Source of the DNA: Candidatus Nanohalarchaeota archaeon
GTDB lineage: Archaea; Nanohalarchaeota; Nanosalinia; Nanosalinales; JAFCCC01
Direction of reading: 5' to 3'
DNA length: 64,000 bases
Assembly: GCA_017610385.1 (NCBI GenBank)
Contig: JAFCCC010000002.1
Span: forward strand, 94,570 to 158,569
Every line of letters begins with the position of its first letter. The stretch's first letter is position 1. Positions 27,289-62,489 of this stretch are shown piece after piece. The notes under the pieces were generated by a model, which made no database searches, was not told where the DNA came from, and worked only from the letters and a program-made list of their open reading frames with translations. The translations under genes and the position numbers were made by a program.

Positions 27289-27441
27289 TTTTCGGAAACT
27301 CAAATTGGATATAACAATTTATATACGTAATTTTATATCTAATTTAAGTGTATAAAACTATATGGGCGAACTTGAAACGTTGAATTTGGAATTCTTTTAT
27401 CTATCTGATCTTTAGAATGCTGGGAGACGAGATTCAAACGC

Positions 27442-27545
27442 AACTGCGGTCAGTTGCATCAACACGTAAAACTCTTACGAGTTTTCCTAACTTGTGAACA
27501 AAATTCACAAGCACAGCGGATTACTGCGTAACTTACTTCACTTTT
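27442..27545 (-). repeat. W element copy 1 (three-hairpin, about 104 nt), inverted relative to copy 2
   Basis: The 59-nt core 27458-27516 is the reverse complement of 35309-35367 with one mismatch. The flanks are homologous but diverged. Confidence 0.85.
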
Positions 27546-27572
27546 CGCTTAAGCCTTTTGTTAAAAAGGCTT
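27541..27572 (-). repeat. Z hairpin unit (aagcctttt..aaaaggctt + aagcgaaaag), downstream of tRNA-Leu
   Basis: The reverse complement matches 46626-46657 at 30 of 32 positions. Both differences fall in the loop. Confidence 0.85.
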
Positions 27573-27576
27573 ATTT

Positions 27577-27659: not shown

Positions 27660-27724
27660 AACTGAAACGCCAGCTGGTACCAACAGCGAATTATTAATAT
27701 AACTCATTTTCATTTTCAGTTTAA

Positions 27725-27755
27725 TTTTCGCTTAAACCTTTTACTGAAAAGGTTT
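27725..27755 (-). repeat. Z hairpin unit, upstream of tRNA-Leu
   Basis: The reverse complement aaaccttttcagtaaaaggtttaagcgaaaa matches 46565-46595 at 28 of 31 positions. One difference is a compensatory G-C to A-T stem change. Confidence 0.8.
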
Positions 27756-27842
27756 AGAATAAGAAGGAATATTAATCTTTCTTTATTGCTTTTTTCGTGT
27801 TTTATACAAATTTATAATAACTCTATTAGCCAATTTTTGAGT

Positions 27843-35280: not shown

Positions 35281-35383
35281 AAAAGTGAAGTCTGTTGTGT
35301 ATAACCGACTGTGCTTGTGAATTTTGTTCACAAGGTAGGAAAACTCGTAAGAGTTTTACGTGTTGATACAACTAACTGTAGTT
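35281..35383 (+). repeat. W element copy 2, ending exactly at tRNA-Tyr nucleotide 1
   Basis: See copy 1. The hairpins lie at 35314-35334, 35338-35359 (GTAA loop) and 35370-35383. Confidence 0.85.
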
Positions 35384-35562
35384 TCCCGACTTAACTCAAT
35401 GGTAGAGTGTCCGGCTGTAGACTTTGGACGCCGCAAACCTTCAAAGGTTTGTACCGGGATGTTCCCGGTTCGAATTAGCCCTTTGTACAGGCAAGCGTAC
35501 AAAAGCGTTAGCAGAAAGTACGCTTCCGCAAATGAATGGTTACGAAAATCCGGGAGTCGGGA
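35384..35562 (+). tRNA. tRNA-Tyr (anticodon GUA) with two introns (anticodon loop 37/38 and T-loop)
   Basis: Hand-folded. Acceptor is CCCGACT/AGTCGGG and the D arm is ACTC-AATGGTA-GAGT. The anticodon stem is TCCGG/CCGGG with loop CTGTAG|A. The T stem is CCCGG/CCGGG with TTCGAAT. Intron 1 is about 35420-35451 and intron 2 about 35475-35549. Confidence 0.85.
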
Positions 35563-35577
35563 TTTCTTTTTATTTTT
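35563..35577 (+). terminator. oligo-T tract after tRNA-Tyr
   Basis: The sequence tttctttttattttt lies directly 3' of the discriminator base. This matches the archaeal oligo-T termination signal type. Confidence 0.4.
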
Positions 35578-42707: not shown

Positions 42708-43931
42708 ATGTTAGAAGATTTCGCAAAGATGGCATTTAGAAATATAACTAGAAGAAAAATGCGATCCTGGCTTACCATGTTAGGAATTTTTATTGGGATC
42801 GCCGCAGTGGTAACTTTAATTTCTTTGGGTCAAGGATTTCAAGGTACAATTAATGAGCAATTTGAAAAGTTGGGACCAAATAGATTGATAATAACTCCGG
42901 GAAATTCTGAAATGGGATTTCAGGGTGGTTCATTAACAACAGAGTATCTAACTGATCGAGAAACCGAAATTGTTAGAAAAACAAGGGGAATTAGATTTGC
43001 GACAGGACTTTTGATAGAAAACGCGCGGATTGATTTTAATGATGAAGTAGCTCATTTGAACGTAATTGGAGTAAAAACAGATTCAGGAACTACTGAGGAA
43101 TTAGAACGTATTGGTTTTTTTGAAATAGAAACAGGAAGACAATTTAGCAATACAGATGGTTATGCTGCGATTCTAGGGCAAAACATAGCTAAAAAAACAT
43201 TTGATAGAGAACTTAGAGTTGGCAATAAAATTCTAATAAATGACGTGCAATTTAAGGTGATTGGTATCCAAAAAACAGCTGGTACTGGCGTTCATGATGC
43301 CGTAATTAGAATTCCATTAGATACTGCAAGAGAAATTTTTGATGAACCGGTAAAAATCTCAGAGGTTATGGCTGCTACTCAAACAGTAGAGGATTTAGAC
43401 GCTGTTGTAGATTCGGTAGAACGGGCTTTAAGAAAGTATAGAGATGTAAAAGAGGGAGAAGAAGACTTTAGTGTTCAAACGTCTAAACAAATCATAAACC
43501 AACTAAATCAAATATTAACTTTGGTAAATGTTGTGTTTATTGGTATTGCGGCTATTTCTTTAATTGTGGGAGGTATTGGAATTACCAATACAATGTACAC
43601 CTCGGTTTTAGAAAGAACAAAAGAAATAGGAATTATGAAATCGGTGGGTGCGCGAAATTCAGATATTAGAAATATTTTTTTAATGGAATCTGGATTTCTT
43701 GGACTGGTTGGTGGAATTATTGGGGCGATTCTAGGACTTATGATTGCTAAAGTGGGAGAACTTATTGTTTTAAAGGCTGCAAATATTGTTTTAAAGCCAT
43801 ACATAAGCATTGAACTGATTGCGGGAGTTTTATTATTTTCATTTTTAATTGGGGCTCTCTCAGGAACATTTCCTGCGATGCAAGCAGCTAAAATGAACCC
43901 AGTTGAATGTTTGAGAGGCCGTATGAAATGA
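42708..43931 (+). CDS. ABC transporter permease, FtsX/MacB type
   Basis: Contains an N-terminal TM segment, a large periplasmic-type domain and a C-terminal FtsX 3-TM bundle (..GGIGITNTMYTSVLERTKEIGIMK..). Confidence 0.88.
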   Translation: MLEDFAKMAFRNITRRKMRSWLTMLGIFIGIAAVVTLISLGQGFQGTINEQFEKLGPNRLIITPGNSEMGFQGGSLTTEYLTDRETEIVRKTRGIRFATGLLIENARIDFNDEVAHLNVIGVKTDSGTTEELERIGFFEIETGRQFSNTDGYAAILGQNIAKKTFDRELRVGNKILINDVQFKVIGIQKTAGTGVHDAVIRIPLDTAREIFDEPVKISEVMAATQTVEDLDAVVDSVERALRKYRDVKEGEEDFSVQTSKQIINQLNQILTLVNVVFIGIAAISLIVGGIGITNTMYTSVLERTKEIGIMKSVGARNSDIRNIFLMESGFLGLVGGIIGAILGLMIAKVGELIVLKAANIVLKPYISIELIAGVLLFSFLIGALSGTFPAMQAAKMNPVECLRGRMK

Positions 43932-45139
43932 TAAAGGATTATTTTAAAATTGCGACAGGAGGATTTATTCATAGGAAAAAAAGGACGTGGTTAACTCTTT
44001 TAGGAATAATTATAGGAATTGCATCTGTTGTTTCTTTGCTTTCATTAGGTTTTGGTATGTATGAGTCTTTAAATGAACAATTTGAAATGATGGGGGCAGA
44101 TAAAATAATTATTACCCCTGGCGGATCTCTTTTTGGGTTGGGCGCTGGCGGGGCCAAAATACTAACAGAAGACGATCTAAGTAGTATTGAATCTGTTTCT
44201 GGAATATATAGTGCAACTCCTTGGCTTTACAAATCCGCAAGACTGAAGTTCAATAGAGAGATTAAGTATGGAATGATTTTGGCTACAACTACGAATCCTG
44301 ACGAAAGTATGCTTAAATCATTTAGTAATTTAGAAATCATCGCTGGTAGAGACTTTAAATTACGAGATCATAACAAAATGATTATAGGTTATCGTATTTC
44401 TACTGGAAAATTCTTTAATCACGGAGTTAAAGTCGGAGATAAAATTGAAGTTCAAGACAGAAAATTTGAAGTTATAGGGATTACGAGTGAAGTTGGAAAT
44501 CCTCAAGACGATAGTCAAATCTATATTCCAATAAATGACGCGAGAGAGATTTTTAATGAAAATGAAAAAATAGATATGATCTTTGCTCAAGTAAGAGATG
44601 AAAACAAAGTAGTATCTGTCTCTGAAAACGTAGAACGGGCTTTAAGAAGATCTAGAAATGTAAAAGAAGGACAAGAAGATTTTAGTGTTATTACTTATGA
44701 TCAAATTAGGGGCACATTCAATATAATTTTTTCAGCATTAATTGCAGTAATTATTGGTATTGCGGCTATTTCTTTAATTGTGGGAGGTATTGGAATTACC
44801 AATACAATGTACACCTCGGTTTTAGAAAGAACAAAAGAAATAGGAATTATGAAAGCTCTTGGCGCGAGAAATAGGGCTATTTTAACAATTTTTGTAATTG
44901 AGGCGGGTTTATTGGGGTTGGTTGGTGGAGTAATTGGAATAATTTTGGGGGTGTTCTTGGGCTTGTTAGTTAAAACCGTTGCTAGTGCTGGGGGTATTAG
45001 TCTAATCAGAGCATCATTTCCAGCTTGGTTAATTATTGGTTCTTTACTTTTTTCTATTTTGATAGGTATTATTTCGGGGGTTTTTCCAGCTAAAAAAGCA
45101 GCTAAATTGAATCCTGCAGATGCTCTTCGGTATGAATAA
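43928..45139 (+). CDS. ABC transporter permease, FtsX/MacB type (paralog)
   Basis: Same architecture as the upstream permease. Start placed at the ATG overlapping the upstream stop (ATGA). Confidence 0.88.
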   Translation: MIKDYFKIATGGFIHRKKRTWLTLLGIIIGIASVVSLLSLGFGMYESLNEQFEMMGADKIIITPGGSLFGLGAGGAKILTEDDLSSIESVSGIYSATPWLYKSARLKFNREIKYGMILATTTNPDESMLKSFSNLEIIAGRDFKLRDHNKMIIGYRISTGKFFNHGVKVGDKIEVQDRKFEVIGITSEVGNPQDDSQIYIPINDAREIFNENEKIDMIFAQVRDENKVVSVSENVERALRRSRNVKEGQEDFSVITYDQIRGTFNIIFSALIAVIIGIAAISLIVGGIGITNTMYTSVLERTKEIGIMKALGARNRAILTIFVIEAGLLGLVGGVIGIILGVFLGLLVKTVASAGGISLIRASFPAWLIIGSLLFSILIGIISGVFPAKKAAKLNPADALRYE

Positions 45140-46205: not shown

Positions 46206-46464
46206 ACTCTTGAAGTTCCGTTTCAGCTTCTGGGGTATCTAATACTCCCGCAACTTCCTCAATTTCTGCATATTCTCTTAATTCGTCTAACTTTTTGTCT
46301 AATTTTTCAATAGATTCATCTTCACAAACGCAAACAATCACAAAAGGGTCTAATGCAAAATGATGAAGTTCTTTTAATTCTAAGGCAAATCCTTTATTTT
46401 TTACTTTGCTTATGAACTCCTTGAACTTCGCTTCAATTACTCTAAACTCCAAAAAGAATTTCAT
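46195..46464 (-). CDS. hypothetical small protein
   Basis: 89-aa ORF; no motif recognised. Confidence 0.4.
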   Translation of the reverse strand: MKFFLEFRVIEAKFKEFISKVKNKGFALELKELHHFALDPFVIVCVCEDESIEKLDKKLDELREYAEIEEVAGVLDTPEAETELQEFIG

Positions 46465-46505
46465 TTCCTTTAGTTTTTAATACAAAACATTTAAATACGT
46501 TAAAT

Positions 46506-46830
46506 TCCGAGCGTTCGGATAAGCTTTTTGCACAAAAGTAAAGGCGCAAAAATCTTAAGCAAATAAGCCTTTTTAGTAAAAGGCTTAAGCGAAAATTAAA
46601 CAGCGAGTTACGAGTATAACTCACTAAGCCTTTTTAGTAAAAGGCTTAAGCGAAAAGAAAATGAGCTTTTCAGATAAAAGCTCACGGAAACTTGTTAAGT
46701 TTCCTAAATCGGAAATTAATGCATTTCCAATTCAAGCAAAATAAGCGTTTTGCACAAAAGTAAACGTGCAAAAATCTTAAGCAAAAATACGTTACCACCA
46801 AGCGTTTTTAAAGAACGGTTTAATCCAAAT
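46506..46830. repeat. array C of back-to-back hairpin modules
   Basis: At least nine consecutive stem-loops. They include the 31-nt Z unit twice (46565-46595, 46626-46656), block Y (46663-46746) and block X (46743-46798). Confidence 0.85.
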
Positions 46831-46981
46831 TAATCTTAATCACATGAAGGCAATTACCAACTTAAGTGACATTCCTTTGCAAATCCATTTTACAAGACCA
46901 CGCACAAGAAAATAAATAAAAATAAAACAAAACGAAATACACTTAAAGTTGTAAAGTAATTACTTACTCAGGGTAAAAACA

Positions 46982-47434
46982 ATGGATTACAAACTTACGC
47001 AAGCAGAAAAAGAAGATTTAATCCAACTCGGTCTTGAAACAGAATTCAACTTTGATTGTGATGATTTAGACGAAGGTCAACGTGGATCTTACATTCCAAA
47101 AATCTTCGAAAGATCAGAAACACCAGGTTATTCTGTCGTGATTCAAAATGGTCGCCTTTTAGTGGTGGCGGATGACTCTGGTCAAGAATATGTTGCAGTT
47201 GCAGCATCATCCCAGTTAACTACCGATGATTTTGCTACAGAAAAATCTCAAAATGCTGAAAAAATGTTTGATGAACTATTTTTGGCGGACGAACAAGGAG
47301 ATCTTTTACCAAAATCAAGAGAAGAAGAAATTTCGGCATTTTTGAATGGCGTCAAAAAAGAACTTGGAAGAATGTATGATAAATCACAAAAAGACTACGA
47401 ACAGTGGAAAAAAGAACAGGAAACAGAAGTATAA
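46982..47434 (+). CDS. hypothetical acidic protein
   Basis: 150-aa ORF; no motif recognised. Confidence 0.45.
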   Translation: MDYKLTQAEKEDLIQLGLETEFNFDCDDLDEGQRGSYIPKIFERSETPGYSVVIQNGRLLVVADDSGQEYVAVAASSQLTTDDFATEKSQNAEKMFDELFLADEQGDLLPKSREEEISAFLNGVKKELGRMYDKSQKDYEQWKKEQETEV

Positions 47435-47539
47435 TAAATTAAATTAAAAACAAAACATATTCTGTTCAAATTAGAAATTTCTATTGAGTTTTGAAAATCA
47501 AGAAATACCTTTAAAAGCTTTGCGATAGTATATTGAATT

Positions 47540-47653
47540 GTTGGCGGTCACAGCGAAGGGGCCACACCCGTACCCATTTCGAACACGGAAGTTAAGCCCT
47601 TCAGCGATTCGAACAGTACTTTCTTCGGAAGGGAAAATCGAGACGCTGCCAGC
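47540..47653 (+). rRNA. rrf: 5S ribosomal RNA
   Basis: The sequence GGCGGTCACAGCGAAGGGGCCACACCCGTACCCATTTCGAACACGGAAGTTAAGCCCTTCAGCG...GTACT... matches the conserved 5S core. The termini pair as helix I. The ends are accurate to within a few nt. Confidence 0.9.
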
Positions 47654-47667
47654 TTATTTTTACTTTT
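47654..47667 (+). terminator. T-rich tract after 5S rRNA
   Basis: The sequence ttatttttactttt lies immediately 3' of helix I. Confidence 0.35.
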
Positions 47668-47670
47668 ACT

Positions 47671-48129
47671 CTACTGTGTGAGGTTCATTGGCAAGTGAGA
47701 GAGTAGATCTTTTAATTCTGAGAGATTTTTTGTGTTGTTTAAGGGCAATCCACTAAAAATTTCTTTAAGGTTTCCTATACGCGGAATAAAGAACTCTTTA
47801 ATGGCAAAAAATGCAAAAATCAATAAAATAGTCATAACAATGGATAAAATTAATCCAATTATGCTTGTAATTAAACCAGCAGTTCCAACACCTGTGGGAG
47901 TTCTCTTTTGTTGAACAGCGCTAAATACTATTCCGAAGATTCCAAGAATAATTCCAATAGGCGGCAGAAGCGTTATACACACCAAACTTAAAATTCCAAG
48001 AACTAATCCTGTAATACCAAAACCATTTCCATATTCTTTTTTGGTAGGTTTTTTAGATTCAACTTTTATCACTTTCTTAACTGGTTTTTTAAGAGTTTTT
48101 TTAGTTTGTGTTGTTTTCTTTATAGGCAT
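47671..48129 (-). CDS. small membrane protein (DUF4190-like Gly/Ile-rich TM hairpins) with a Lys-rich N-terminus
   Basis: Contains GITGLVLGILSLV..., GIILGIFGIVFS and GLITSIIGLILSIV segments. Confidence 0.55.
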   Translation of the reverse strand: MPIKKTTQTKKTLKKPVKKVIKVESKKPTKKEYGNGFGITGLVLGILSLVCITLLPPIGIILGIFGIVFSAVQQKRTPTGVGTAGLITSIIGLILSIVMTILLIFAFFAIKEFFIPRIGNLKEIFSGLPLNNTKNLSELKDLLSHLPMNLTQ

Positions 48130-48221
48130 AAATATATTTAAGGTGAGTGATCATTTATTAATTATCCATACTTGCCCTAAACGAAACCTTTAAAAATTCA
48201 AGCACAGAATGGTTACAAAGT

Positions 48222-48432
48222 AAGCCTTTTTAGCGAATAAGCTTTTTGCACAAAAGTAAACGTGCAAAAATCTTAACCAAAAATACGTTACCACTGAGCT
48301 TTTCAGATAAAAGCTCACGGAAACTTGTTAAGTTTCCTAAATCGGAAATTAATGCATTTCCAATTCAAGCAAAATAAGCCGTTTAATAAAGGCTTAAGCG
48401 AATAAGCTTTTCAAATAAAGGCTTAAGCAAAA
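48222..48432. repeat. array D of hairpin modules upstream of tRNA-Asp
   Basis: Contains a truncated Z unit (48222-48233), block X (48239-48294), block Y (48296-48379) and two degenerate Z-like hairpins (about 48375-48432). Confidence 0.85.
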
Positions 48433-48473
48433 TAAAAACAAAAATCCTAAACCCAAAATTAAAAATAGATGAT

Positions 48474-48608
48474 GCCTCGGTAGTGTAGTGAAGTTTATGT
48501 CTTTTTGACAAACTCTATAGGCCCATCATACACGCCTGTCAATCCGCAAAAGAAGGAGCTTTGTGGAACAGATCGCGTGTGACACGGGTTCGACTCCCGT
48601 TCGAGGCG
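48474..48608 (+). tRNA. tRNA-Asp (anticodon GUC) with two introns (D-loop and anticodon loop 37/38)
   Basis: Hand-folded. Acceptor is GCCTCGG/TCGAGGC. The D region GTGT-AGTG[30-nt intron]GCCCATCAT matches the archaeal tRNA-Asp D-loop. The anticodon stem is CACGC/GCGTG with CTGTCA[32-nt intron]C. The T arm is ACGGG-TTCGACT-CCCGT. Confidence 0.85.
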
Positions 48609-54054: not shown

Positions 54055-54218
54055 GGGCTCGTAGCTCAGTTGGTAGAGCACCAGGCTTTTAACATGTTTT
54101 AAAAGCTCTGAGGTCAATTAGACCTGTGATTGGGAGTTACCTGGGTGTCGCGGGAAGTTTAAAAGTCAGATAACTATCGTTGGCTTTAAACTCGCGAATT
54201 CGAGCCCCGTCGGGCCCA
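54055..54218 (+). tRNA. tRNA-Lys (anticodon UUU) with two introns (anticodon loop 37/38 and T-arm 53/54)
   Basis: Hand-folded. Acceptor is GGGCTCG/CGGGCCC and the D arm is GCTC-AGTTGGTA-GAGC. The anticodon stem is CCAGG/CCTGG with loop CTTTTA|A. The T stem is GCGGG/CCCGT with TTCGAGC. Intron 1 is about 54092-54138 and intron 2 about 54155-54198. Confidence 0.85.
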
Positions 54219-59229: not shown

Positions 59230-60690
59230 ATGAAGTTAGATTTCCTGAAATACTTAAATGAGAAAACATTGGTTAAGCATCAAATAGATTCTTATAATGA
59301 TTTTGTGGTTAATAGGTTACAACGAATTATAAATGATATTGAAGAAATTAAACCAGAATTATTGGGTGGTGAAGATTTGGTTATTAAACTAGGTCGTATT
59401 TCTGTTGAAGAACCAATTGTTAAAGAAGCTGACGGATCTATTAGAAAAATTTTGCCAAGTGAAGCACGAACCCGAAATTTAACTTATGCTTCACGATTAA
59501 GAGTAACAATGACTCCTGTTTTTGAAGGAGTTAAACAAGATTCTGAAAAAGTTATTATTGGAGAAATTCCTGTTATGGTAAAGTCAATTATTTGTCCAAC
59601 AGCTAAAATGAATAAAGAAGAATTAGAAAAAAGTGGTGAAGATCCAGATGATCCTGGTGGCTATTTTATAATTAATGGTTCAGAAAAGGTTATTGTAACT
59701 TCAGAAGAATTAGCAAATAACCAACCAATGTATCTTAGGGACTTAGGCGAAGAAATTGCTCGTTTGAACTCTGAAAGACGAGGTTATGTGCAAAGACATG
59801 TATTCAGACGAAAACATGGAATTATTTACTTAAATTTTGCGAATGTAAAAAGTGTTCCTGCTGTTGTGGTTATGCGCGCGTTGGGAATGGAAACTGATAA
59901 AGAAATTATAGAAGCAATCTCTGAAAAATACGCGGGAGAGGTTTATTTGAATATTTATGAAAGCGAGGTTTCAACAAAAGAAGAGGCTGTTGATGTTATT
60001 GGTAAAAAAGCAAGCGTTACAAAAGACAGGGAATCTCGAGTTTATACAATACTTGATAAGTATTTATTACCTCACTTGGGTCAAGACCCTGAAATTAGAA
60101 AGTTAAAAGCAGAATATTTAGGAAAAATTATCAAAAATTTAGTTGCATTGGCCAAAGGAGATTTACAAGAGGATGACATAGATCACTATGCAAATAAAAG
60201 ATTAAAATTAGCAGGAGACTTATTGGAAATGCAATTCCGGTCTGTTTTCTTAGGCAAATGGGGTTTCGTTGCAAGAATAAAATATAATTTTCAGAAAAGT
60301 GTTAAAAGAGGAAGAATGCCCTCTTTGCAATCTACGGTTGTTGCAGATACTTTAACAAAACAAATTATGAGTGCTATGGCAACTGGTAGTTGGGTTGGTG
60401 GAAGAACGGGTGTCGCTCAAAGACTAGAAAGAAGTAATTTCTTGAAAGCATTAGATCATTTAAGAAATGTTGTATCTCCGTTAAGTTCTCAAAGACAACA
60501 CTTTGAAGCGAGAGAATTACATGCAACTCAATGGGGTAGATTATGCCCAATTAAAACGCCAGAAGGTATGAATATTGGTTTAAGAAAATATTTGGCGTCT
60601 TTTGCACTGATTACTAATGGAATCCCAGAAAAAGAAAGAACTCCGTTAAAAGAAGTACTTCTAAAAAATTTAAAAGAAGGTGAAAAATGA
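59230..60690 (+). CDS. rpoB2: DNA-directed RNA polymerase subunit B'' (Rpo2N)
   Basis: N-terminal half of the second-largest subunit (..HQIDSYNDFV.., ..GGYFIINGSEKV.., ..RLCPIKTPEGMNIGL..). It overlaps the B' start (ATGA). Confidence 0.95.
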   Translation: MKLDFLKYLNEKTLVKHQIDSYNDFVVNRLQRIINDIEEIKPELLGGEDLVIKLGRISVEEPIVKEADGSIRKILPSEARTRNLTYASRLRVTMTPVFEGVKQDSEKVIIGEIPVMVKSIICPTAKMNKEELEKSGEDPDDPGGYFIINGSEKVIVTSEELANNQPMYLRDLGEEIARLNSERRGYVQRHVFRRKHGIIYLNFANVKSVPAVVVMRALGMETDKEIIEAISEKYAGEVYLNIYESEVSTKEEAVDVIGKKASVTKDRESRVYTILDKYLLPHLGQDPEIRKLKAEYLGKIIKNLVALAKGDLQEDDIDHYANKRLKLAGDLLEMQFRSVFLGKWGFVARIKYNFQKSVKRGRMPSLQSTVVADTLTKQIMSAMATGSWVGGRTGVAQRLERSNFLKALDHLRNVVSPLSSQRQHFEARELHATQWGRLCPIKTPEGMNIGLRKYLASFALITNGIPEKERTPLKEVLLKNLKEGEK

Positions 60691-62489
60691 CTGATGTATA
60701 TTTAGATGGAGAATTAATTAGTACAACAAATAATGCAGAAAAACTAAGAAAATATGTCATTACATCTCGAAGAAAAGGAGAATTAAACGAAGAAATTAAT
60801 GTTTATTTAGATACGACAAAAGATGAATTAAGAATTTTAACTGATTCTGGAAGAGTTCGAAGACCTTTAATTATTGTAGATGAAGGGAAACCAAGGATTA
60901 CAGAGGATCACCTTAGAAAATTGGAAACAGGTGAATTAAAATTTTCAGAATTAGCAAAAGAAGGAATAATTGAATATTTGGATGCTAGTGAAGAAGAGAA
61001 TTCTTATGTTGCATTAAATTTAGAGGATGTAACCAGAGAGCATACTCATTTAGAAATGGATCCTGCAATTATTCATGGTTTATCTGCATCAGTTGTAGTT
61101 TATCCGCAATACAATAGAGGAGATCGTGTAAATTATGGATCTAAAATGTGTACACAAGGGCTTGGAATGTATGCTAAAAACTTCCATTCTAGATTTGATA
61201 CAAATTCTAATATACTCCTTTATGCACAAAAACCGCTTGTTTCAACTCAAAGCTCTGATAAATTAATTGGGACCCATCCAATAGGACAAAACATGATTAT
61301 TGCTATTGCTTCTTTTGAAGGATATAATATGGAAGATGCAGTTATCATGAATAAAGCATCTGTCGAAAGAGGGTTAGGAAGATCATTTTATTTTAGAACA
61401 TATACCACAGAAGCAAGAAGATATTGGGGCGGTCAAAAAGATAGGGTAGGAATTCCAGACAAAGACGTTAGAGGATATAGATCAGAAGAAGCTTATCAAC
61501 ATTTGCCAGATGATGGTATAATTAATCCAGAAACGTTTGCTAATGAAAATTCAGTTTTAGTCGGAAAAATGTCTCCGCCAAAGTTCTTAGGATCTTCAGA
61601 AGAAGTTAAATTGGGTCTAGCTGCAAGCAGAGAAACCTCGACAACGGTTAGAAGTGGGGAATCAGGAATGGTGGATAAGGTTTTAGTTTCTGAAACAGCG
61701 GGAGGCAACAAATTGATTAAAGTAAAATTAAGAGAAGAAAGAATTCCAGAATTAGGTGATAAATTCGCATCAAGGCACGGCCAGAAAGGAGTTATTGGTT
61801 TAATTATTCGAGAGGAAGATATGCCATTTACGAGAAATGGTATTGTTCCGGATTTAATTTTTAGTACTCATGCCATACCATCTAGAATGACAATATCTCA
61901 TTTAATGGAATTAATTGGAAGTAAAGTTGCAGCTCTACGGGGCTCTTTTGTAGATGGAACCGGATTCCATGGGCAATCTGAAGAGGACTTGAGAAAAGAA
62001 CTACAAGAATTGGGATTTAGATATGACGGCAAAGAAAGAATGTACAATGGAATAACTGGGGAATTAATTTCTGCTATGATCTTTATTGGCCCGATGTTTT
62101 ACTTAAAATTAGAACACATGGTAGCAAATAAAATTCATGCAAGAAGCAGAGGTCCTGTAACATTATTAACAAAACAACCAACAGCAGGAAGAGCGAGAGA
62201 AGGTGGTTTAAGGCTTGGTGAAATGGAAAAAGATTGTTTTGTAAGTCACGGCTCTGCATTACTTCTAAAAGAAAGGTTCGGATCAGATTTTACAAGCACG
62301 TTTATTTGTCAGAAGTGTGGCGAATTAGCAGTGCAGGATAAAAGAAAGAAAATAGTTTATTGCCCAATTTGCAAAGACCGAGCAGAGTTAGTCGAAGTAA
62401 AAATACCACAAGCATTTATTTTACTATTAGATGAATTAAAAACACTACTAATTTCATTAAAGATAAAAACAGAGGAAAGTGAACTATGA
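60687..62489 (+). CDS. rpoB1: DNA-directed RNA polymerase subunit B' (Rpo2C)
   Basis: Contains ..GYNMEDA.., ..GDKFASRHGQKGV.., ..GGLRLGEMEKD.. and the C-terminal zinc motif CQKCG...CPIC. Confidence 0.96.
   Translation: MTDVYLDGELISTTNNAEKLRKYVITSRRKGELNEEINVYLDTTKDELRILTDSGRVRRPLIIVDEGKPRITEDHLRKLETGELKFSELAKEGIIEYLDASEEENSYVALNLEDVTREHTHLEMDPAIIHGLSASVVVYPQYNRGDRVNYGSKMCTQGLGMYAKNFHSRFDTNSNILLYAQKPLVSTQSSDKLIGTHPIGQNMIIAIASFEGYNMEDAVIMNKASVERGLGRSFYFRTYTTEARRYWGGQKDRVGIPDKDVRGYRSEEAYQHLPDDGIINPETFANENSVLVGKMSPPKFLGSSEEVKLGLAASRETSTTVRSGESGMVDKVLVSETAGGNKLIKVKLREERIPELGDKFASRHGQKGVIGLIIREEDMPFTRNGIVPDLIFSTHAIPSRMTISHLMELIGSKVAALRGSFVDGTGFHGQSEEDLRKELQELGFRYDGKERMYNGITGELISAMIFIGPMFYLKLEHMVANKIHARSRGPVTLLTKQPTAGRAREGGLRLGEMEKDCFVSHGSALLLKERFGSDFTSTFICQKCGELAVQDKRKKIVYCPICKDRAELVEVKIPQAFILLLDELKTLLISLKIKTEESEL

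Follow-up and report, generated by a model that had tools for sequence, protein, structure and literature searches.

Small palindromic repeats are well studied in bacteria. To our knowledge, descriptions of them in archaea are very few, and there are none for DPANN archaea, whose reduced genomes contain little non-coding DNA. In bacteria, as far as the accessible parts of the sources describe them, the REPs (repetitive extragenic palindromes), the bacterial interspersed mosaic elements (BIMEs) and the REPINs are short extragenic palindromes that form mosaic clusters and vary between strains (PMC2817692, PMC3116915, PMC3733652). In the Thermoproteales, near-identical introns of the bulge-helix-bulge (BHB) type occur at different tRNA positions, and a "transposition" at the DNA level by an unknown mechanism has been proposed for them (Fujishima et al. 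2010, as reported in PMC4090602). Here we describe two blocks of hairpins, X and Y, that stand on both sides of a segment carrying the 5S rRNA gene in a stretch of 64,000 nucleotides (hereafter the window) from a Candidatus Nanohalarchaeota archaeon (GenBank assembly GCA_017610385.1, contig JAFCCC010000002.1, positions 94,570 to 158,569 of the forward strand). In the reading that we consider reasonably probable, X and Y form part of two mosaic arrays, and the stem-loop modules of these arrays belong to a REP/BIME-like repeat family of DPANN archaea.

An earlier note on this DNA had reported the two blocks as direct repeats in swapped order, and a renewed comparison confirmed it. The two copies of Y (46663-46746 and 48296-48379) match at 84 of 84 positions and belong to a maximal exact run of 85 nt (46662-46746 = 48295-48379), and the two copies of X (46743-46798 and 48239-48294) match at 54 of 56, with mismatches at 46747 (G/T) and 46781 (G/C). 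All copies lie on the + strand, in the order Y-X on the left and X-Y on the right. Block Y consists of three perfect hairpins of 9 bp (Y1), 8 bp (Y2) and 6 bp (Y3), and the bracketed segment holds, as stated there, an acidic open reading frame (ORF) of 150 aa, the 5S rRNA gene and, on the - strand, an ORF for a membrane protein of 152 aa. Three features had been overlooked, namely that X and Y are parts of longer arrays, that a third, more diverged copy of X lies at 46520-46557 and that modules of the same family also surround a tRNA-Leu gene at 27.5 kb.

The left array (46520-46822) lies within an intergenic region of 517 nt (46465-46981) and shows the order X', Z1, W, Z2, Y1, Y2, Y3, X, V; the right array (48221-48439) lies within a region of 344 nt (48130-48473) and reads truncated Z, X, Y1, Y2, Y3, Z', Z'' (Table 1). 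At least six module types are joined by A-rich linkers (AGCGAAAA, AGCAAA) in a single orientation. In the window the stems of the modules measure 6-13 bp and their loops 3-10 nt, and most modules open with TAAGC or TGAGC, close with GCTTA or GCTCA and carry an A-rich tail (AGCGAAAA or AGCAAA) behind the hairpin. The commonest module, Z, has the form TAAGCCTTTT-loop-AAAAGGCTTA plus the tail AGCGAAAA; among the hairpins of Y, Y1 is a Z-like variant with the stem TGAGC/GCTCA, Y2 is of the GGAAAC type and Y3 of the GGAAAT type. All tails of both arrays point in the + direction, the same as the 5S gene and the tRNA gene at 48474. Shuffled sequence folds far less well than either array (z = -5.8 and -4.3), a 43-nt core of Y had no chance match across 100 shuffles of the window, and Tandem Repeats Finder detected no regular tandem array. 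The distance to the 5S gene is about 720 nt on the upstream side and about 570 nt on the downstream side, beyond two protein genes. The X/Y blocks are pieces of two co-oriented mosaic arrays and not a unit built around the 5S gene.

The turnover of the arrays was assessed against one other assembly, from a near-identical strain (contig L001, 2,308 nt); a protein-based synteny search with the acidic ORF and the membrane protein returned one readable contig only. Outside the arrays, the window and L001 show 3 mismatches in 1,793 nt, an identity of 99.8%, and the 5S segment is collinear and intact in both strains. The left array of L001 lacks 77 nt (Y3, linker and X hairpin) and its Y1 differs at 3 positions, while its right array carries an extra Z' between X and the tail, lacks Y2-Y3 and contains Z'' twice. 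The two copies of Y1 are identical only in the window strain and show 3 differences between them in L001; therefore the identity at 84 of 84 positions (85 nt) is the result of a very recent, strain-specific copying event, in agreement with the recent duplication or gene conversion that had been proposed. The contrast drawn at that time with diverged tandem paralogues is also correct, as the two genes for FtsX-type permeases (42708-43931 and 43907-45139, + strand) reach 79% identity at most, over the best 300 nt.

In L001 (2028-2095), a cassette of 50 nt made of the X tail and Y1 is flanked by an 18-nt direct repeat, AATAAAGGCTTAAGCGAA, which looks like the footprint of slippage or of an insertion. 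The modules otherwise are hairpins with no consistent flanking duplication; miniature inverted-repeat transposable elements have terminal inverted repeats flanked by a target-site duplication of fixed length.

Strain heterogeneity at exactly these arrays might also be expected if the perfect identity were an assembly artefact, that is, a chimeric join of co-existing strains at the repeated modules. Repeats of 56-85 nt can confuse short-read assemblers, and the second contig, with a length of just 2.3 kb, terminates close to the arrays. The junction between the linker of the right Y and Z', however, shares just 7 nt with the left copy, which is too short for a mis-join in the assembly graph, so that it was presumably present in the reads, and the independent assembly also has arrays at both sites, with collinear flanks. 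We therefore regard an artefact as very improbable.

As co-oriented direct repeats of 85 nt and 56 nt set 1.6 kb apart, the blocks are in principle substrates for homologous recombination. They could delimit a mobile or excisable 5S cassette, either as a composite element or as a recombination substrate that amplifies or deletes the 1.4-kb segment, and the earlier note had suggested such excision or amplification. This role specific to the 5S gene was not supported, and we judge a cassette extremely unlikely. Neither the segment nor the 65 window ORFs that were scanned contained a recognisable gene for a transposase, an integrase or another recombinase. The 5S gene, the acidic ORF and the membrane-protein gene each have their own signals, and arrays of the same kind stand at tRNA genes without any such bracketing. 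L001, the sole other readable contig, keeps the segment though its flanking arrays share a much shorter identity, and it shows neither a deletion variant nor an empty site.

The swapped order of the blocks corresponds to a circular permutation, in which the left 137-nt unit Y-X-T (46662-46798, T being the X tail) becomes the right X-T-Y with 2 mismatches. The previous proposal of a tandem X-Y-X-Y ancestor sampled at different phases, or of modular shuffling, stands in so far as it fits this permutation. Permuted units might also be expected from small structured RNA genes, one version of this explanation being that the 137-nt unit circularises and re-integrates in the other phase, as proposed for the permuted C/D box small RNAs (sRNAs) of Nanoarchaeum. 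A TTTAAA box at promoter distance from both arrays, the strongly negative folding z-scores and the precedent of permuted, circular sRNAs in a DPANN archaeon (PMC3491384) would agree with such genes. The same permutation is, however, explained equally well by a tandem duplication followed by a deletion, and the near-identical strain lacks Y3 and shows other module orders, hence no fixed RNA is conserved. No Rfam family was matched either, and small RNA genes appear improbable to us. The arrays resemble the C/D box sRNAs of Nanoarchaeum equitans (PMC3491384) in that a unit of sRNA size is circularly permuted at two loci of a DPANN archaeon, and they differ in having no C/D boxes and in being known from sequence alone, with a permutation that a tandem duplication would equally produce.

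No C/D box, H/ACA or hammerhead motifs were found in the arrays by eye. Rfam searches at the gathering score on the window and at E ≤ 5 on the region returned only 5S and tRNA, with a best sub-threshold match of 31.9 bits against a cut-off of 141. X and Y, for which membership of a known annotated RNA gene had been considered in the earlier note, match no Rfam family.

The occurrence of Z outside the window was explored with the pattern TAAGCC-N8-16-GGCTTAAGCGAA, using one genome per species. The scan gave chance matches in bacteria and a clear archaeal cluster, which comprised JAZDLW01 with 6 loci and JAPLVC01 with 3 (both Aenigmatarchaeota), together with Micrarchaeia and several uncultured archaea. 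The same pattern recovered at least 45 true copies in metagenome contigs of 26-54% GC and was absent from 2.9 million viral contigs, and a viral origin was therefore rejected. The stem and the tail are nearly invariant across the copies, the loop is free and the spacing of the arms ranges from 3 to 8 nt. An alignment of 36 foreign Z copies showed pairing in 96.9% of cells, with changes on both sides at 5 of the 10 pairs (20 double-change cells), and none of 500 shuffles reached the observed level of pairing or of covariation. Several stem variants coexist within single genomes (TGAGC/GCTCA, TGACC/GGTCA, TTGAAC/GTTCAA, CAAAC/GTTTG, TAAACC/GGTTTA). A binding site for a dimeric palindrome-binding protein was considered and rejected, since the variable arm spacing and the coexistence of compensatory stems in one genome are better accounted for by a hairpin of nucleic acid.

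A covariance model (R1) was then built from 36 hairpins taken exclusively from other genomes and applied to the window, where it returned E values below 0.01 only in the array regions at about 27.5, 46.6 and 48.3 kb. Five Z copies scored between E = 1e-7 and 1e-12, while Y1 and X, on both sides, scored about 0.005; on these matches X and Y1 are diverged members of the Z family. Hairpins of the Y2 and Y3 types (GGAAAC...GTTTCC and GGAAAT...ATTTCC) recur in the arrays of an Aenigmatarchaeota genome of 46% GC. Rfam gave no family at Z in 29 related loci, and the literature searched on DPANN archaea or Nanoarchaeum yielded no earlier description of these hairpins. The hairpin-repeat family is thus apparently widespread in DPANN archaea and undescribed.

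By reading, about half of the Z copies lie in or next to tRNA genes, and 24% of Z sites have a strict T-arm motif no more than 200 nt away, compared with 2.4% for background windows. The copies in introns begin 0-2 nt past the 5' splice site, in introns located at the canonical position 37/38, in the D-loop or in the T-loop; a second hairpin generally comes after Z, which in a single instance stands in reverse at the 3' edge of the intron. Rfam tRNA matches span Z in loci L012 and L088. Removal in silico of Z plus 26-61 nt restored cloverleaf tRNAs of 68-74 nt (Arg, Leu, Glu, Gly, Ala, Ser), whose first exon measures about 37 nt or about 15 nt. Other copies lie 2-4 nt past tRNA 3' ends, and others fill the whole spacer between protein genes, as do an array between S5 and L30 and a copy before L44e. 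The copies in the window lie outside RNA genes, not within tRNA introns, and do not qualify as archaeal BHB introns.

Some side observations concern these relatives. In intron copies (e.g., L012, L035, L096) the invariant tail AAGCGAAA can pair with a downstream TTTCGCTT, so that the core would consist of two adjacent hairpins; both strands are invariant, without covariation. In L022 and L139, a tRNA with a Z intron has an anticodon stem, TAAGC/GCTTA, equal to the outer stem of Z; its anticodon was first read as an unusual AGG, and the best spliced model of ARAGORN is Leu(TAG). In the metagenome contigs L127 and L151 compared with L168 (28-29% GC), orthologous Z copies carry an inverted loop (CTT vs AAG) on unchanged stems, which suggests the flip expected from recombination between hairpin arms. 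In L054 (2829-3010, - strand), the 5S gene of an uncultured archaeon contains an intron-like insertion of about 65 nt with a long hairpin, and the tRNAs neighbouring it have up to three introns.

Compared with the REP/BIME elements as the accessible parts of the cited papers present them, the modules are alike in several respects: they are stem-loop palindromes of 20-40 nt, several hairpin types and conserved linker motifs are combined in mosaic arrays, they are located between genes and inside operons, and the arrays differ between strains. The palindromic nature of the window modules is evident, and their pairing is supported by covariation. They differ in the following points. The modules are archaeal, begin with TAAGC, TGAGC or GGAAA and lack a GTAG/CGTC tag; they all share one orientation, whereas REPs alternate within a cluster; no RAYT-type transposase was detected among the 65 window ORFs at the E-value limits used; and the core Z hairpin is conserved across phylum-level distances and is also found inside tRNA introns. 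The loci of JAZDLW01 contain at least 6 strict Z copies. The succession of hairpins, with an A-rich tail of about 8 nt behind every one, also recalls a CRISPR array, from which it differs in that no constant repeat alternates with unique spacers of 30-40 nt, the module types differ within an array and no cas genes are present in the window.

According to the REP-like reading, the modules would for the most part be palindromic repeats of a selfish or neutral kind. Their copying, loss and shuffling would take place at the DNA level, likely by recombination or gene conversion between shared hairpins and linkers and by template switching at hairpins. They would accumulate at sites whose RNA is trimmed off in any case, such as pre-tRNA leaders and trailers and the loops of BHB introns, and also in non-coding spacers; the concentration of modules in the introns, leaders and trailers of stable RNAs fits their persistence at places where processing of the transcript eliminates them without cost. 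One very recent copying event between arrays 1.6 kb apart would then have left both the 85-nt identity and the permuted order, and the X/Y repeats would not be a device for moving the 5S segment.

A bolder extension, which we put forward tentatively as a possibility, is that the Z hairpin, together with the tail AGCGAAAA, is the hallmark of a mobile unit. In DPANN archaea such a unit would give rise to new tRNA introns and build up into arrays within leaders and trailers of stable RNAs. Under this view the 137-nt Y-X-T permutation would be the trace of an intermediate in circular form, such as an RNA that was excised, ligated and copied back into DNA. As in the Thermoproteales introns, one intron core (Z, AGCGAAAA and a second hairpin) is found in relatives in different tRNAs, at 37/38, in the D-loop and in the T-loop; unlike them, the Z family belongs to DPANN archaea, its core also occurs in trailers, spacers and arrays, and the window copies are not in introns. 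If correct, the "transposition" of BHB introns in archaea, long without an explanation, would for the first time have a vehicle defined by its sequence, together with a strain polymorphism with which to study it. The value of the finding hinges on whether the link between the arrays and tRNA introns reflects mobility: a mobile family would offer a concrete handle on the gain of tRNA introns in archaea, and a functional one would represent a conserved RNA signal so far without a name.

The signals around the arrays bear on both readings. TTTAAA occurs once per 590 nt on the + strand, therefore the two coincidences in the spacing of box and array are unlikely to be due to chance. In Nanoarchaeum, the transcription start follows box A (TTTAAA) at 26-27 nt, and tRNA genes have T stretches as terminators (PMC3491384). 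The arrays start 30-32 nt after a TTTAAA, like the spacing of the 5S promoter, which argues that both are probably transcribed. As the tRNA gene at 48474 lacks its own TTTAAA box (within 80 nt), the right array may constitute its long 5' leader, a weak step in the argument; the box at 46490 is possibly a bidirectional promoter. Z itself was evaluated as a core promoter, with its T-run, loop and A-run acting as a TATA box, and was rejected as a general explanation on the grounds that its loops are often G+C-rich (ACCC, GTCC, CCG), that the promoters of this organism use TTTAAA and that in L066 a ribosome-binding site and ATG follow too closely after a reversed hairpin. In favour of such a promoter, several start codons are located 29-39 nt from the centre of a Z hairpin. 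A replication origin was also rejected: the cumulative GC skew keeps rising, no Orc1/Cdc6 domain is encoded in the window and the arm spacing is variable.

The main rival to the selfish reading is a functional role, in which the hairpins would be cis elements of transcripts, either bidirectional terminators or insulators, with oligo-T in one arm and oligo-A in the other, or stem-loops protecting RNA ends, and the arrays would be stacked copies guarding stable-RNA genes. Z provides a T5 run directly after tRNA-Leu in the window and after tRNAs in L048 and L055, and RNA fragments of three kinds would have the start of Z at their predicted 5' end, namely those after a TTTAAA box, a splice site and a tRNA 3' end. 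On the - strand, 6 terminator-like elements made of a hairpin plus T tail were found in the region against 2.4 expected, 5 of them modules; on the + strand, A runs follow the hairpins. The conservation of stem and tail across phyla with varying loops would also be compatible with such a function. Both arrays, however, stand in divergent promoter regions with no upstream gene to terminate, copies bearing T5-T6 lie within tRNA introns that need read-through, the content of the arrays is freely variable between near-identical strains and one array lies inside the conserved S5-L30 ribosomal-protein cluster (L070). We hold such a cis-acting function to be rather unlikely.

Some results weigh against the REP-like reading that we prefer. 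Conservation of the stem and the AGCGAAAA tail from 26% to 54% GC and the precise placement of Z, at 1-2 nt past the 5' splice site and 2-4 nt past tRNA ends, resemble a functional element more than junk. No transposase of the kind that moves REPs was detected among the 65 ORFs of the 64-kb window, and a 20-mer of Y2 found no match in the metagenome collection, which bears on the genome-wide copy number. In addition, the T5 runs within the first modules are expected to terminate archaeal RNA polymerase and are ill-suited to a long transcribed leader, and the left TTTAAA box fits the divergent leaderless ORF equally well.

Table 1. Array modules, neighbouring genes and promoter signals at the 5S rRNA locus, and the Z modules flanking tRNA-Leu (window positions).
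Feature	Positions	Strand	Description
TTTAAA box A	46490-46495		30 nt ahead of the left array's first module and 31 nt ahead of the start codon ATG in a divergent 89-aa ORF at 46464
X' (diverged X copy)	46520-46563	+	long-loop hairpin TAAGCTTTTTGCAC...GCGCAAAAATCTTA, linker AGCAAA; weak R1 match, E = 1.9
Z1	46564-46595	+	10-bp hairpin TAAGCCTTTT/AAAAGGCTTA, tail AGCGAAAA; R1 50.6 bits, E = 4e-12
W	46605-46622	+	hairpin GAGTTA-cgagta-TAACTC
Z2	46625-46661	+	hairpin identical to Z1, tail AGCGAAAAGAAAA; R1 48.2 bits
Left block Y	46662-46741	+	Y1 46662-46684, Y2 46686-46704, Y3 46711-46728, linker AATTCAAGCAAAA; Y1 against R1, E = 0.005
Left block X	46742-46799	+	long-loop hairpin 46742-46779, tail AGCAAAAATACGTTACCACC; R1 E = 0.005
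V	46800-46822	+	degenerate Y1-like hairpin AAGCGTTTTTAAAGAACGGTTTA; end of the left array
Acidic 150-aa ORF	46982-47434	+	orphan; promoter-like CGAAATACAC-TTAAAGTT at 46931-46949
TTTAAA box A of 5S	47510-47515	+	first T 30 nt upstream of the 5S start
5S rRNA gene	47540-47654	+	Rfam RF00001, 77.6 bits; T5 run after the gene
152-aa membrane-protein gene	47671-48129	-	weak DUF4190 match
TTTAAA box A	48189-48194	+	ACGAAACC ahead, resembling a transcription factor B recognition element; 32 nt before the first module of the right array
Truncated Z	48221-48237	+	5' arm plus tail, TAAGCCTTTTTAGCGAA
Right block X	48238-48294	+	hairpin 48238-48275, then tail
Right block Y	48295-48374	+	Y1 48295-48317, Y2 48319-48337, Y3 48344-48361, linker
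Z' and Z''	48375-48439	+	Z' 48375-48402, bulged, R1 35.7 bits; Z'' 48403-48425, containing a T-G pair; plus an A-rich linker; the right array ends here
Intron-containing tRNA	48474-48608	+	RF00005, 36.9 bits; read as tRNA-Asp(GTC), two introns
Z module	27539-27576	-	starts 3 nt past the tRNA-Leu 3' end; R1 51.3 bits, top match in the window
Z module	27722-27759	-	upstream of tRNA-Leu; compensatory stem variant TAAACC/GGTTTA; R1 44 bits

The acidic ORF has no homologue besides itself and no Pfam family. The Z modules flanking tRNA-Leu lie on the - strand, in the same direction as that gene. A 105-nt block of three hairpins in the tRNA-Leu trailer (27440-27545, - strand) is 90% identical to one upstream of tRNA-Tyr (35281-35385, + strand). 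One hairpin of this pair differs by a compensatory change, and after the copy at 27.4 kb comes a decayed fragment that looks like the 3' end of a tRNA (about 27417-27440).

The cryptic tRNA-Tyr(GTA) gene (about 35385-35565, + strand) has two introns, one after the anticodon and one in the T-loop, and the acceptor stem CCCGACT/AGTCGGG; neither ARAGORN nor Rfam at its gathering score detected it. Two further genes on the + strand, at 48474-48608 and 54055-54218, were read as tRNA-Asp(GTC) and tRNA-Lys(TTT), with two introns each, and ARAGORN detected neither of them. Of the four tRNAs here that bear introns or lie adjacent, three escaped the standard tRNA finder. The arrays break assemblies and hide tRNA genes, and they are also fast strain markers.

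The window has a GC content of 31-36%; its tRNA genes carry one or two introns, its 5S gene stands alone and its rpoB is split. The split rpoB and the multi-intron tRNAs mark the organism as an archaeon, probably of the DPANN type. Its 5S gene is 74-76% identical to two 5S genes from loci that carry Z, one of them from Aenigmatarchaeota. RNA polymerase subunit B, whose splitting is an archaeal trait, is encoded by two genes on the + strand (59230-60690 and 60687-62489) with an overlap of 4 nt.

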